Assembly: GCF_048403405.1 (NCBI RefSeq)
Contig: NZ_CP183129.1
Reading direction: 5' to 3' (one strand)
DNA: 64,000 bases
Source of the DNA: Escherichia coli
Lineage (GTDB): Bacteria; Pseudomonadota; Gammaproteobacteria; Enterobacterales; Enterobacteriaceae
Shown here: positions 5,280-9,223 of the stretch, piece after piece
Position numbering within the stretch: the first letter of the stretch is position 1
Layout of the letters: each line of letters begins with the position of its first letter
Position numbers and translations under genes: made by a program
The notes under the pieces: model-generated
Databases searched by the model: none
What the model saw: the letters and a program-made list of their open reading frames with translations, nothing else
Told to the model about the DNA's origin: nothing

Positions 5280-5504
5280 TCTTTCCGCGTCTCATCTTTA
5301 TCGGTGAGACGCACCCTCAAAATTTCTCCTTCACTCTATAGTCTTTTCGCTTTACTCCCGTTCATTCAACTTAAGTCTCCATTTTTTTGCATTACTGCTA
5401 TCTGACAGACCTCCGTTTTTCTGTTGATAAAACACTCTTTTTGACGTTTTTACAGACTAATTGAGCGTGAAGTGTGCAAACGATAAAAGTGTGGGAAAAA
5501 TTGT

Positions 5505-5532
5505 TTGACTTATAAGTCTCAGAAAGTAATAT
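5505..5532 (+). promoter_or_regulatory. Candidate sigma70 promoter of the serV-argVYZQ tRNA operon
   Basis: -35 ttgact (5505-5510), 16-nt spacer, -10 taatat (5527-5532), followed by GC-rich discriminator gtgcgcc typical of stringently controlled stable-RNA promoters. Confidence 0.45.
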
Positions 5533-5594
5533 GTGCGCCACGCAGCGACGATGAGCGATAAACAAGTTCTTCGAAGCACTCGTAAGAGGCGTGT

Positions 5595-5687
5595 GGTGAG
5601 GTGGCCGAGAGGCTGAAGGCGCTCCCCTGCTAAGGGAGTATGCGGTCAAAAGCTGCATCCGGGGTTCGAATCCCCGCCTCACCGCCA
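5595..5687 (+). tRNA. serV: tRNA-Ser (anticodon GCU)
   Basis: 93-nt cloverleaf with long variable arm, anticodon loop ctgctaa, ends in CCA; first gene of the cluster. Confidence 0.92.
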
Positions 5688-5690
5688 TTT

Positions 5691-5767
5691 GCATCCGTAG
5701 CTCAGCTGGATAGAGTACTCGGCTACGAACCGAGCGGTCGGAGGTTCGAATCCTCCCGGATGCACCA
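5691..5767 (+). tRNA. argV: tRNA-Arg (anticodon ACG)
   Basis: 77-nt sequence gcatccgtagctcagctggatagagtactcggctacgaaccgagcggtcggaggttcgaatcctcccggatgcacca; anticodon loop ctacgaa; copy name assigned by position. Confidence 0.9.
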
Positions 5768-5901
5768 TATTCTACGTACTTTCAGCGATGAAGGTATGGA
5801 AGAGGTGGCGGTAATAACCGCAGGCACCAGGGAGGATAACGTTGCTTTAGCAACGGCCCGAAGGGCGAGCCGCAAGGCGAGTAATCCTCCCGGATGCACC
5901 A
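5768..5901 (+). repeat. tRNA-Arg 3'-end-bearing paralogous element, copy A
   Basis: 134-nt element after the first tRNA-Arg, ending in a second copy of the tRNA-Arg 3' end (..tcctcccggatgcacca); paralogous to copy B at 6323-6455. Confidence 0.6.
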
Positions 5902-5965
5902 TCTCTTACTTGATACGGCTTTAGTAGCGGTATCAAAAAATCTGCAGTAAAGTAAGTTTCCCGAT

Positions 5966-6042
5966 GCATCCGTAGCTCAGCTGGATAGAGTACTCGGCTA
6001 CGAACCGAGCGGTCGGAGGTTCGAATCCTCCCGGATGCACCA
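5966..6042 (+). tRNA. argY: tRNA-Arg (anticodon ACG)
   Basis: Identical 77-nt tRNA-Arg sequence; copy name assigned by position. Confidence 0.88.
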
Positions 6043-6105
6043 TCTCTTACTTGATATGGCTTTAGTAGCGGTATCAATATCAGCAGTAAAATAAATTTTC
6101 CCGAT

Positions 6106-6182
6106 GCATCCGTAGCTCAGCTGGATAGAGTACTCGGCTACGAACCGAGCGGTCGGAGGTTCGAATCCTCCCGGATGCACCA
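6106..6182 (+). tRNA. argZ: tRNA-Arg (anticodon ACG)
   Basis: Identical 77-nt tRNA-Arg sequence; copy name assigned by position. Confidence 0.88.
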
Positions 6183-6245
6183 TCTCTTACTTGATATGGC
6201 TTTAGTAGCGATATCAATATCAGCAGTAAAATAAGTTTTCCCGAT

Positions 6246-6322
6246 GCATCCGTAGCTCAGCTGGATAGAGTACTCGGCTACGAACCGAGCGGTCGGAGGT
6301 TCGAATCCTCCCGGATGCACCA
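6246..6322 (+). tRNA. argQ: tRNA-Arg (anticodon ACG)
   Basis: Identical 77-nt tRNA-Arg sequence; copy name assigned by position. Confidence 0.88.
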
Positions 6323-6455
6323 TATTCTCCGTAATCTTCAGCAATGAAGGTATCGAAGAGGTAGCGGTATTAACCGCAGGCACCAGGGAGGATAACGTTG
6401 CGCCAGCAACGGCCCGAAGGGCGAACGCCAGTGAGTCATCCTCCCGGATGCACCA
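6323..6455 (+). repeat. tRNA-Arg 3'-end-bearing paralogous element, copy B
   Basis: 133-nt element after the last tRNA-Arg, about 85 percent identical to copy A and likewise ending in tcctcccggatgcacca. Confidence 0.6.
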
Positions 6456-6602
6456 TCATCTCCAAAAAATTTCCTTCAAAAATATCTCATTTCTAAATAA
6501 CTACTTTATCCATTTCCTGAATTTTCTTCTCCTTCGCCATCAGCGACAAAATCAAGCAATTACGCTAAAGTAGCGTCATATTTTTCGACTTGCGAGAAGA
6601 CC

Positions 6603-7169
6603 ATGTACGAGCGTTATGCAGGTTTAATTTTTGATATGGATGGCACAATCCTGGATACGGAGCCTACGCACCGTAAAGCGTGGCGCGAAGTATTAGGGCA
6701 CTACGGTCTTCAGTACGATGTTCAGGCGATGATTGCGCTTAATGGCTCGCCCACCTGGCGTATTGCTCAGGCAATTATTGAGCTGAATCAGGCCGATCTC
6801 GACCCGCATGCGTTAGCGCGTGAAAAAACAGAAGCAGTAAGAAGTATGCTGCTGGATAGTGTCGAGCCGCTTCCTCTTGTTGAAGTGGTGAAAAGTTGGC
6901 ATGGTCGTCGCCCAATGGCTGTAGGAACGGGGAGTGAAAGCGTCATCGCTGAGGCATTGCTGGCGCACCTGGGATTACGCCGTTATTTTGACGCTGTCGT
7001 CGCTGCTGATCACGTCAAACACCATAAACCCGCGCCAGACACATTTTTGTTGTGCGCGCAGCGTATGGGCGTGCAACCGACACAGTGTGTGGTCTTTGAA
7101 GATGCCGATTTCGGTATTCAGGCGGCCCGTGCAGCAGGCATGGACGCTGTGGATGTTCGCTTGCTGTGA
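6603..7169 (+). CDS. yqaB: HAD-family sugar phosphatase (fructose-1-phosphate phosphatase)
   Basis: 188-aa ORF with HAD motif I FDMDGTILDTE near the N-terminus; conserved position. Confidence 0.9.
   Translation: MYERYAGLIFDMDGTILDTEPTHRKAWREVLGHYGLQYDVQAMIALNGSPTWRIAQAIIELNQADLDPHALAREKTEAVRSMLLDSVEPLPLVEVVKSWHGRRPMAVGTGSESVIAEALLAHLGLRRYFDAVVAADHVKHHKPAPDTFLLCAQRMGVQPTQCVVFEDADFGIQAARAAGMDAVDVRLL

Positions 7170-7639: not shown

Positions 7640-9223
<1,584 letters not shown>

Follow-up and report, generated by a model that had tools for sequence, protein, structure and literature searches.

The serV-argVYZQ operon and its two repeats

The window analysed here, a 64-kb (64,000 nucleotides) stretch of Escherichia coli DNA, carries the serV-argVYZQ tRNA operon. 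In K-12 annotation the operon is flanked by csrA on one side and yqaB-yqaA-gshA on the other, and no integrase, phage or mobile-element genes are found among these neighbours. The features along the locus are as follows.

5505..5532, + strand: sigma-70-like promoter candidate 5' of serV (TTGACT-16-TAATAT; consensus match only)
5595..5687, + strand: tRNA-Ser(GCU), serV (ARAGORN, K-12 annotation)
5691..5767, + strand: tRNA-Arg(ACG) copy 1, argV (ARAGORN, K-12 annotation)
5768..5901, + strand: raV, tRNA-linked repeat, 134 nt
5902..5965, + strand: ordinary inter-tRNA spacer with a small hairpin, TTGATAC...GTATCAA (repeat family search)
5966..6042, + strand: tRNA-Arg(ACG) copy 2 (ARAGORN)
6106..6182, + strand: tRNA-Arg(ACG) copy 3 (ARAGORN)
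6246..6322, + strand: tRNA-Arg(ACG) copy 4 (ARAGORN)
6323..6455, + strand: raQ, tRNA-linked repeat, 133 nt
6456..6540, + strand: C-rich, G-poor tract 3' of raQ (GC skew -0.83 at 6460-6539)

The promoter candidate upstream of serV is the only one found between positions 5300 and 6700. The ordinary spacer recurs at 6043-6105 and 6183-6245. Beyond raQ, the base composition of the C-rich tract makes it a candidate site for Rho loading. The search for intrinsic terminators past raQ gave no strong one, only a single weak hairpin candidate at 6562-6576. RefSeq annotates neither raV nor raQ.

Both elements begin at the first base past the CCA of a tRNA-Arg gene (5691-5767 for raV, 6246-6322 for raQ). 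The initial annotation had reported two similar elements at 5768-5901 and 6323-6455, and their resemblance holds: column identity is 93% over 134/133 nt. Each ends in a second copy of the tRNA-Arg 3' end, CCA included, as had been proposed, although the copies exceed the 17 nt originally quoted: 19 nt in raV (5883-5901, AATCCTCCCGGATGCACCA) and 18 nt in raQ (6438-6455, ATCCTCCCGGATGCACCA). The small hairpins described earlier are likewise present, with differences confined to their loops. Hairpin 1 reads CGTTGC-TTTA-GCAACG in raV and CGTTGC-GCCA-GCAACG in raQ; hairpin 2 reads GCGGT-AATA-ACCGC and GCGGT-ATTA-ACCGC, respectively.

The similarity and structure of the pair are far beyond chance. 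Within the 64-kb window a 16-nt core occurs at the raV and raQ sites only, and a covariance model built from arg homologues (R1) matches raV at 144.9 bits, raQ at 123.3 bits and no other position. Compared with shuffled sequences, the folds are unusually stable (z = -5.4 for raV and -5.1 for raQ). All open reading frames of at least 20 amino acids that overlap the elements run through tRNA genes or lie antisense. An 8-codon frame in raV was considered and dropped; it has 6 codons in raQ, and the element start differs in most other genera.

Predicted fold of the elements

The predicted structural parts, given mainly for raV, are these.

5775..5798, + strand: raV 5' hairpin P0a, 10 bp in the MFE fold
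5808..5821, + strand: raV hairpin P0b, GCGGU-AAUA-ACCGC (MFE fold)
5824..5901, + strand: raV 3' domain, 78 nt, predicted four-way junction with a free ACCA tail
5824-5837 paired with 5884-5897, + strand: raV closing helix
5840-5855, 5856-5866 and 5869-5878, + strand: raV hairpins H1, H2 and H3
6380-6455, + strand: raQ 3' domain

The 3' 78 nt are thus modelled as a tRNA-sized four-way junction. Folded alone, this domain of raV reaches -39.2 kcal/mol (z = -5.2, MFE frequency 0.51), and it contains an invariant GCAACGGCCCGNAGGGCGAG core. In raQ, hairpin H3 is of a degenerate 'GAAC..CAGUGAG' subtype. The minus strand of the two elements also folds well (z = -3.9 and -5.0).

The closing helix appears to mimic the acceptor and T stems of a tRNA. 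Its 5' strand, GCACCAG+GGAGG, corresponds in tRNA numbering to positions 1-7 fused to 49-53, and its 3' strand, CCUCC+CGGAUGC followed by ACCA, to positions 58/59-76. As predicted, the helix comprises 13 bp with two irregularities and leaves ACCA free. Both irregularities are conserved: modelled in register they are the mismatches C.A and A.G, and in the MFE fold they appear as two bulged A residues. Owing to them the modelled structure is an imperfect minihelix. The same architecture recurs elsewhere: when 14 K-12 repeats were folded unconstrained, the MFE structure of 12 had the 3' copy paired to a ...GGAU strand lying upstream of it and matching either the local tRNA or 5S helix I.

Identity with the tRNA-linked repeats

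These elements are already known: they are EcoGene raV and raQ, an identity that the initial annotation did not recognise. Their membership of the tRNA-linked repeat (TLR) family is close to certain. According to Stenum et al. (2021, PMC8144298), K-12 has 22 TLRs spread over 10 loci, and their defining trait is a 3'-terminal 18-19 bp identical to the upstream tRNA or rRNA. The strain table and supplement of that paper pair raQ/Z/V with argY/Z/Q. Both elements lie directly 3' of a tRNA, carry the 18-19-nt tail copy, occupy a catalogued position and contain the family core. raV (5768-5901) is 100% identical to the K-12 raV locus, and raQ about 97% identical to its K-12 counterpart.

The family core takes the form CGTTGC-loop-GCAACG-GCCCGNAGGGC-hairpin-GAGTMATCC. 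A pattern search for CGTTGC-loop-GCAACG-GCCCGNAGGG recovered it in the arg, tyr, lys, pro and rrnB TLRs, each copy then running into the 3' end of its local RNA. Overall, the core adjoins five tRNA types (Arg, Tyr, Lys, Pro and Ser) and 5S rRNA. The arg-only model R1 detects lys, pro, tyr and lysV TLRs at E <= 6e-5, and serX TLRs at E of about 0.02-0.05. In the reverse direction, the Rfam family RtT (RF00391) matches raV and raQ at E = 2.8e-5 to 0.03, with scores of 29.2 and 25.8 bits for the two elements and 33.4 bits for raV in local search, under a gathering cutoff of 45 bits. That cutoff is passed by the K-12 tyr, pro, lys, lysV and two serX TLRs (46-137 bits). The arg elements are therefore distant homologues of RtT that fall outside the curated RF00391 boundary.

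Conservation, copy turnover and covariation

Conservation extends beyond very close relatives; the initial annotation had named a restriction to these as counting against its reading. Across Enterobacterales, arg TLRs were found in about 25 genera, at 75 loci that together hold 112 distinct sequences. raV is 90% identical to its Klebsiella michiganensis copy; over the 150 nt past the last TLR, identity between E. coli and K. michiganensis falls to 57%, the shuffled level. raV-like and raQ-like subtypes are each kept across genera, and copies within a genome are often near-identical, as in Citrobacter sp. On2M.

Copy number varies, from 1 to 7 in E. coli genomes and from 1 to 4 per operon elsewhere, and tandem TLR arrays exist. 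K-12 has three arg TLRs (raV, raZ and raQ), with raZ directly after the third tRNA-Arg. The present strain has two and lacks raZ, the difference being a precise 135-bp indel bounded by a 20-bp repeat. In K-12, raZ combines raQ and raV sequence, a chimera suggestive of homologous recombination. On the best reading, copy number changes when a tRNA 3' end and its copy, which together make direct repeats of 19-20 bp, recombine or allow slippage.

The suggestion that selection acts on RNA structure stands in part. Loop differences between the two copies, on which it was based, show no covariation; the support comes from other genera, where compensatory pairs are found in P0b, H1 and H3. The covariation check proposed at the outset gave 83.8% paired cells across genera against 33-47% in slid controls, a percentage biased upward since the structure used was a single-sequence MFE fold mapped onto the alignment. 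Double-change cells number 155, compared with 59-84 in the controls. In P0b one pair shifts from G-C to A-U in 26 of 65 sequences, and the H1 stem appears in some genera as CACTGC/GCAGTG, CGTCGC/GCGACG or CATCGC/GCGATG. H2 is invariant. P0a shows 60% paired cells and double changes at eight of its ten pairs, in a region where the alignment is uncertain. Such compensatory changes imply selection on pairing.

The closing helix is 95% paired across genera but is unable to covary within the arg set because the search pattern fixed its 3' strand; its match to tRNA could reflect common descent or gene conversion instead of selection. From a MAFFT alignment RNAalifold recovers only H1 and H3, and in addition it prefers to pair CCCG/AGGG with the 3' copy; every pair of this alternative is invariant. 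G.U cells outnumber A.C cells 245 to 130, a ratio of about 2:1 that arises mostly from a poorly aligned hairpin and is a weak signal. A cognate/non-cognate matrix of duplex energies between TLR 5' regions and tRNA tails discriminated poorly, since T stems are all purine-rich and the 60-nt window missed the ser/pro 5' strand.

Transcription and proposed processing

tRNA genes lie on both sides of raV, and one predicted promoter, upstream of serV, is shared by them. The closest characterised relative is rttR, a tyrT repeat annotated as an RNA of 171 nt; its 5' end lies 7 nt past tyrV, and its 3' end coincides with that of the CCA copy. For the arg spacers, the literature search returned no report of a raV or raQ RNA product and nothing specific on expression. 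On the best reading raV and raQ are co-transcribed structured spacers, probably excised by tRNA-processing enzymes.

As modelled, each element is a module of the operon primary transcript with three sections: two 5' hairpins; a closing helix, whose strands copy the acceptor-stem and T-stem strands of the cognate tRNA; and a conserved three-hairpin core in the place of the T loop. A possible processing route can be read from the anatomy of the elements, together with rttR and RrB, and we give it about an even chance. (i) RNase E would cut a few nucleotides past each CCA. (ii) Exonucleases would trim back to CCA. (iii) RNase P might cut at 5823/5824. (iv) This would leave a stable RNA, either of about 127-134 nt or of about 78 nt. 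The minimal substrate of RNase P and of the CCA and 3'-end enzymes is a coaxial acceptor-plus-T helix with a 3' ACCA. Enzymes of tRNA maturation recognise such a helix and the CCA end, and the elements, as folded, retain exactly these; release by the same machinery is therefore probable. Taking the family assignment and the processing reading jointly, we consider the account likely to be right, a judgement that blends near-certainty on the family with even chances on the mechanism.

Alternative explanations

Three origins had been offered initially: decayed tRNA pseudogenes, remnants of tRNA-targeted integration, and processed tRNA-like RNAs co-transcribed with the operon. The last is the best supported of the three, by the predicted shared promoter, the spread over about 25 genera with compensatory changes, and the rttR precedent. 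As pseudogenes, raV and raQ would be duplicated tRNA-Arg genes drifting neutrally, with the 3' end alone recognisable. The closing-helix strands can indeed be read as tRNA positions 1-7/49-53 and 58/59-76, so that tRNA ancestry of the ends is plausible, and likely for the terminal helix. The remainder speaks against decay: on the + strand the calls made by ARAGORN and by the Rfam tRNA model are confined to the five genuine tRNAs, and none falls within raV or raQ; the interior is not tRNA-like, and its core is common to TLRs of four other tRNA types and 5S rRNA; and the elements, which carry compensatory changes, stay about 90% identical from Escherichia to Klebsiella against a flank that is randomised. 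The chance that the elements are decaying genes is accordingly slim. Integration scars have a still slimmer one. Tail copies of 18-19 nt would then be displaced att half-sites, and T-loop-class tRNA att sites, in which the duplicated block starts in the T loop, do exist; the block here begins in the T loop too, and the presence or absence of raZ is a precise indel bounded by a direct repeat. Against this, the neighbours csrA, yqaB, yqaA and gshA include no integrase or phage genes, and one integrase would be inadequate for a core of about 50 nt found beside Arg, Tyr, Lys, Pro and Ser tRNAs and 5S rRNA. The complementary 5' strand is present, tandem arrays exist, the supposed insert is merely about 115 nt of conserved structured core, and raZ as a raQ/raV chimera points to homologous recombination. 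The core was found in just 5 of 2.9 million viral contigs, and these carry Tyr-, Lys- or Pro-type TLRs like those of host tRNA operons, not beside phage tRNA genes. This part of the initial annotation is not upheld.

It is unlikely, although less so than either of these, that the repeats are selfish or neutral passengers of the operon, kept by unequal crossing-over and gene conversion and with no function for the cell. Variable copy number and the frequency of near-identical copies within a genome are in keeping with such passengers. A strain lacking all 22 TLRs has been built (PMC8144298), and the family is therefore dispensable in the laboratory. The two subtypes retained across genera indicate that homogenisation is incomplete while sequence is conserved, the compensatory changes imply selection on pairing, and in vitro binding of Hfq and CsrA is reported for the rrn members (PMC8144298); none of this fits passengers well. 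Very unlikely, by our estimate, is a reading in which the core is a re-targetable module that spreads among stable-RNA operons through a copy mechanism and captures the last 18-19 nt of the host RNA each time. The captured block (tRNA position 58/59 to CCA) would be the stretch that reverse transcriptase copies from a tRNA primer. If so, TLRs would be tiny non-autonomous mobile elements parasitising tRNA and 5S processing, and not local duplications. Least credible of all is that the palindromic core acts as DNA, as a protein-binding site or recombination signal. CGTTGC-N4-GCAACG is a perfect inverted repeat, and the minus strand folds well; but the half-sites change together in some genera, which base-pairing explains better than a protein half-site does, the excess of G.U over A.C points weakly the same way, and the element is necessarily transcribed within the tRNA precursor. 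Processing of a co-transcribed RNA thus remains the preferred reading.

Significance

As a discovery the elements carry little weight. The TLR catalogue dates to Rudd 1999, and relatives in the tyrT repeat were sequenced in 1978 by Egan & Landy, both as cited in PMC8144298. There is an annotation gap: the arg-linked copies are left unmarked by RefSeq/PGAP and by the Rfam cutoff, and scans of sequence alone will therefore go on finding them anew. The family itself is a structured RNA module that Enterobacterales conserve inside highly expressed tRNA and rRNA operons. Modelled folds suggest a unifying view, in which each TLR would consist of the terminal helix of its local stable RNA and a common three-hairpin core. 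This view yields concrete and cheap experiments.

Comparison with known systems

The K-12 TLRs share locus, sequence, 18-19-nt tail copy and core with the elements described here, and there is no essential difference. RtT/rttR (RF00391), the 178-bp repeats of the tyrT operon, is homologous in its 3' half, where both types have H1, GCCCGAAGGGCGA, a variable hairpin, GAGUAAUCC and the tRNA 3' end. Both also lie directly 3' of a tRNA gene, with a predicted closing helix to an upstream ...GGAU strand. The arg elements differ in having other 5' hairpins, a tRNA-Arg tail and scores of 26-33 bits against the 45-bit cutoff, and neither the T-arm-like hairpin nor the CUCGAGCG..AGCGAGAG segment seen in the tyr/pro/ser type is present in them. 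No tpr-like frame was found among the open reading frames of at least 20 amino acids in the arg elements.

RrA, RrB and RrF are TLRs between terminators T1 and T2 of rrnA, rrnB and rrnD (PMC8144298). Like the arg elements they have the same core, here CGTTGC-GAA-GCAACGGCCCGGAGGG, and a 3' end that copies the upstream stable RNA; in predicted folds, their closing helix has a 5S helix-I-like 5' strand. What sets them apart from the arg elements is their linkage to 5S rRNA, their position past a terminator, and the CsrA-binding GGA motifs in their loops. In vitro binding to Hfq and CsrA has been described for these rrn-linked TLRs, whereas tRNA-linked TLRs score below 0.01 in a CsrA-binding predictor (PMC8144298). 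With tRNA minihelices and the tRNA-like domain of tmRNA, the likeness is that of an acceptor-plus-T helix with a 3' ACCA; the arg elements differ in a modelled three-hairpin insert in place of the T loop and in two conserved helix irregularities. A precedent for a functional RNA cut from a tRNA precursor is provided by 3'ETS-leuZ.

Two repeats in the serV-arg operon

The tRNA cluster is flanked by the end of csrA and by yqaB, at the locus annotated serV-argV-argY-argZ-argQ in K-12. Its four tRNA-Arg(ACG) genes are identical.

Features of the cluster (plus strand)
5595–5687: tRNA-Ser(GCU)
5691–5767: tRNA-Arg(ACG)
5768–5901: first element, raV
5966–6042: tRNA-Arg(ACG)
6106–6182: tRNA-Arg(ACG)
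6246–6322: tRNA-Arg(ACG)
6323–6455: second element, raQ

The two elements are real, rightly placed and non-random. Their positions in the initial annotation proved exact: the first base of each directly follows the CCA of a tRNA-Arg. The similarity noted there amounts to 93% column identity in an alignment, the last 19 nt of raV and the last 18 nt of raQ repeat the tRNA-Arg 3' end, and the small hairpins that differ in their loops only are present. A 16-nt core, GCAACGGCCCGAAGGG, occurs in the window twice, once per element. Both fold much better than shuffled sequences, the first element at -60.3 kcal/mol (z = -5.4) and the second at -53.6 kcal/mol (z = -5.1).

ARAGORN called an antisense tRNA-Arg(tcg) at 5711–5782 on the minus strand, overlapping the genuine tRNA-Arg at 5691–5767 and the beginning of raV. 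Rfam 'Plastid-ycf2' matches of the same kind lie antisense to all four tRNA-Arg genes, and both sets of calls were taken as artefacts of tRNA self-complementarity. The ordinary 63–64-nt spacers (5902–5965, 6043–6105 and 6183–6245) all contain a small hairpin, UUGAUAC..GUAUCAA, around GGCUUUAGUAGCG. This hairpin-bearing inter-tRNA-Arg spacer is 89% conserved in Klebsiella michiganensis, and its fold is mildly above shuffles (z about -1.9).

Identity of the elements

The elements are the already known arg members raV and raQ of a family named 'tRNA-linked repeats' (TLRs) by Stenum et al. 2021 (PMC8144298), related to RtT RNA with scores under the Rfam cutoff. What was noticed is thus a rediscovery: 5768–5901 is 100% identical to the K-12 sequence, 6323–6455 is the terminal K-12 copy with four substitutions, and a published strain table names the arg members raQ, raZ and raV (PMC8144298). 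RefSeq K-12 records and the listed E. coli genomes have no annotation under the elements. In a permissive Rfam search, both match RF00391 (RtT RNA) at 29.2 and 25.8 bits, below the 45-bit cutoff, over AACGUUGC-loop-GCAACGGCCCGAAGGGCGAG..GAGUAAUCC; a local search gave 33.4 bits (E = 2.8e-5), also below cutoff. According to PMC8144298, TLRs were first sighted at tyrT by Egan & Landy in 1978, and Rudd (1999) listed 22 over ten K-12 loci. The same paper records that an early claim for the tyrT member was later withdrawn, that the rrn members RrA, RrB and RrF bind Hfq and CsrA in vitro, and that a strain deleted for all 22 TLRs exists.

Fold of the arg repeats

At minimum energy, raV folds into two 5' hairpins (5775–5798 and 5808–5821) and a 78-nt 3' domain (5824–5901). 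This domain also folds alone, at -39.2 kcal/mol (z = -5.2), into a four-way junction that makes up 51% of the ensemble; H1, H2 and H3 are the hairpins of the conserved core.

Helices of the 3' domain
Closing helix: GCACC-A-GGGAGGAU (5824–5837) paired with AUCCUCCCGG-A-UGC (5884–5897), ACCA left free
H1: CGUUGC/GCAACG
H2: GCCC-GAA-GGGC
H3: GCC-GCAA-GGC

The 5' strand is, in register, the acceptor 5' strand of tRNA-Arg with two substitutions (GCAUCCG to GCACCAG), and GGAGG, the 5' strand of the T stem, follows without a gap. The 3' strand runs from the T-stem 3' strand through the acceptor 3' strand and discriminator to CCA. The domain is therefore a tRNA-Arg acceptor/T-arm 'minihelix', with the conserved core replacing the T loop (UUCG/AAU).

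Conservation and covariation

In a scan that took one genome per species (pattern CCCGNAGGG, an 8–38-nt gap, then the tRNA-Arg tail), arg TLRs came up at 75 loci in about 25 genera, all Enterobacterales. They include Citrobacter, Enterobacter, Klebsiella, Raoultella, Kluyvera, Kosakonia, Leclercia, Salmonella enterica subsp. arizonae, Pantoea, Erwinia, Pectobacterium, Brenneria and Serratia rubidaea. Together the 75 loci hold 112 distinct elements, mostly 130–138 nt, each directly 3' of a tRNA-Arg or another TLR. The operon of serV and three to four arg genes is conserved, one to four of its Arg genes being followed by a TLR, and Pantoea has tandem arrays. For a rough idea of constraint, raV and the first K. 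michiganensis TLR share 90% identity; the figures are 89% for the adjacent spacer, 88% for the operon leader and 57%, the shuffled level, for the 150 nt past the last TLR. After the fourth TLR of K. michiganensis (locus positions 1956–1995), a TLR 5'-like start, tcttctccgagatagcagccacgctgttgtttcacgg, precedes divergence; this is a further copy, truncated, and recalls the '.14' of the 3.14 tyrT repeats.

The E. coli fold was laid on a 65-sequence alignment. With the fold taken from one of the aligned sequences, and with relatives and paralogues among them, standard pairs fill 83.8% of cells, against 33–47% when partners are slid by 1–3 columns. Double-change cells number 155 (59–84 in the slid controls), and none of 500 column shuffles reached the observed pairing or covariation score. 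Compensatory changes occur in the 5' hairpin P0b (G-C to A-U in 26 sequences), in H1 (e.g. CACUGC/GCAGUG, CGUCGC/GCGACG and CAUCGC/GCGAUG) and in H3 (GCC/GGC, GGC/GCC, GUC/GAC and GCCUUCGGC). H2 is invariant; the first 5' hairpin (5775–5798) aligns poorly and is 60% paired. The closing helix is 95% paired and variable on one side only, because the search pattern fixed its 3' strand. The initial annotation had held that restriction to very close relatives, or variation that breaks pairing, would speak against selection on RNA structure. Neither was therefore found: the repeats are not confined to close relatives, and their variation keeps pairing.

Turnover and copy number

Three arg TLRs are present in K-12, behind argV, argZ and argQ, and two in the window. 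A precise 135-bp indel accounts for the difference; its ends lie within a 20-bp direct repeat, AATCCTCCCGGATGCACCAT, which the tRNA 3' end and the TLR copy of that end make up. K-12 raZ is chimeric, its 5' half raQ-like and its 3' half identical to raV, which points to homologous exchange between copies. Across 5,426 complete E. coli genomes, arg-type matches number 1–7 per genome, and a raQ copy at least 99% identical to that of the window occurs in only 61 records.

Transcription, processing and function

Among the readings first offered for the elements, a processed, co-transcribed tRNA-like RNA is the best supported. Co-transcription is favoured by a scan of 5300–6700, in which the sole promoter candidate lay upstream of serV and terminators were absent up to 6562. 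Since raV lies inside this operon, it is very likely part of the precursor of three downstream tRNAs. Both elements keep the helix and ACCA end of their cognate tRNA. Processing we infer from other family members: rttR, the only TLR with an annotated RNA, starts 7 nt past tyrV and ends exactly at the CCA copy, and the RrB repeat has been proposed to direct RNase E cleavage just as at 5S (PMC8144298). By analogy, the enzymes that mature tRNAs would also excise the arg elements, and raV would yield an RNA of about 127 nt (about 5775–5901). If RNase P accepts the minihelix, a further 78-nt species (5824–5901) would be expected. A CsrA-binding predictor gives tRNA-linked TLRs scores under 0.01 (PMC8144298), so the CsrA link of the rrn members is probably not shared by them.

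The tract 3' of raQ (6456–6540) is C-rich and G-poor, with a GC skew of -0.83 at 6460–6539. The same scan found no strong intrinsic terminator after raQ and one weak hairpin candidate (6562–6576). The operon may end by Rho-dependent rather than intrinsic termination. Rho-dependent termination has been described for tyrT. Deletion of argY, argZ and argQ lowers tRNA-Arg2 16-fold, against a naive 4-fold (PMC13170351), and the same deletion coordinates are listed as also removing raQ/Z/V (PMC8144298). As a lead only, this might point to an influence of the repeats, or of the operon context, on how the remaining tRNA-Arg gene is expressed or processed.

Alternative explanations

The two other readings first proposed are contradicted. 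A tRNA ancestry of the terminal helix is plausible, but decayed tRNA pseudogenes do not fit a shared core that is not tRNA-like, the conservation of the elements or their compensatory changes. Duplicated tRNA 3' ends had suggested scars of integration; against this, no integrase lies among the neighbours, one core stands beside six different stable RNAs, and a complementary 5' strand exists. Viral contigs were scanned too: the core turned up in just five, and there always as part of Tyr-, Lys- or Pro-type TLRs whose sequence resembles that in host tRNA operons.

The elements may be selfish passengers upheld by unequal crossing-over, which fits both the variation in copy number and the existence of a TLR-less strain; alone, this leaves unexplained the compensatory changes and the retention of two subtypes across genera. 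That the palindrome acts at the DNA level is unlikely, because both half-sites change together.

One family with two architectures

The K-12 TLRs recovered were three arg, four tyr, five from the lysT operon, one proK, three serX, one lysV and one rrnB. A pattern search found the core CGTTGC-(3–5 nt)-GCAACG-GCCCGNAGGG common to the arg, tyr, lys, pro and rrnB repeats. A variable small hairpin follows, then GAGT(A/C)ATCC, and every core then runs into the 3' end of its own neighbouring stable RNA. The serX and lysV repeats do not match the core pattern, yet keep its second half.

Scores under the RtT model (cutoff 45 bits) and R1, a covariance model trained on 65 arg TLRs only, with tails after the core and closing helices
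arg (window): RtT 26–33 bits; R1 145 and 123 bits; tail ..CCTCCCGGATGCACCA
tyr: RtT 133–137 bits; R1 28–31 bits (E about 1e-5); tail ..CCTTCCCCCACCACCA; helix 5' UG-C-GGGGAAGGAU, 3' AUCCUUCCCC-CA
lys (lysT operon): RtT 47–60 bits; R1 62–73 bits; tail ..CCTGCACGACCCACCA; helix 5' CGUGUAGGAU, 3' AUCCUGCACG
lysV: RtT 47 bits; R1 29.5 bits
proK: RtT 101 bits; R1 46 bits; tail ..CCTCTATCACCGACCA; weak helix 5' GAGGAU, 3' AUCCUC
serX: RtT 46, 46 and 36 bits; R1 17–18 bits (E about 0.02–0.05); helix 5' GGGGGGAU, 3' AUCCCCCC
rrnB: RtT no match; R1 13 bits (E = 0.44, marginal); tail (5S rRNA) ..AACTGCCAGGCAT; helix 5' UGUUUG-U-CGGU, 3' the 5S 3' copy

It is thus the divergent arg and rrn members that the curated cutoff leaves out. 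R1 had no match elsewhere on the plus strand of the window and one overlapping match on the minus strand (14 bits, E = 0.23). In unconstrained folds, the 3' copy pairs with an upstream GGAU-ending strand matching the local RNA in 12 of 14 K-12 TLRs; the rrnB 5' strand is a wobble version of the 5S 5' end, UGCCUGGCGGC. As a general rule, a TLR is built from two parts, the local stable RNA's terminal helix and a three-hairpin core common to the family; this rule may or may not already stand in Rudd 1999.

The K-12 rrnB T1-T2 terminator interval (locus positions 462–505) contains the TLR core CGTTGCGAAGCAACGGCCCGGAGGG. This cassette is a terminator in wide use in cloning vectors, and a TLR would thus be present on many plasmids. 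An Rfam match to naRNA4 (CssrE) near K-12 proK (locus positions 276–355) is above cutoff and unrelated to TLRs. At 5818–5894, Aggregatibacter sRNA 22 (AaHKsRNA22) matches at 16.4 bits, far below cutoff; its consensus layout, H1-H2-GA-H3-GAGUA, is that of the TLR core. This Pasteurellaceae sRNA family was defined by RNA-seq (Rfam RF02902). It may be a TLR relative, in which case the family would reach beyond Enterobacterales.

Two architectures are found. In type 1, seen in arg and the first four lysT-operon copies, the core follows the 5' strand directly. In type 2 (tyr, pro, ser, lysV, the last lysT-operon copy and the S. rubidaea arg copy), two hairpins lie between 5' strand and core, an additional one with the T-stem 5' strand plus UUCGA as its 3' strand and a CUCGAGCG..AGCGAGAG hairpin, often with a terminator in front. 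The S. rubidaea arg TLR (locus positions 8619–8765) consists of an intrinsic terminator, a T-arm-like GGAGGUUCGA hairpin and then the core. The tyr, pro and ser repeats of E. coli have the same form, and both architectures are therefore found with one tRNA type.
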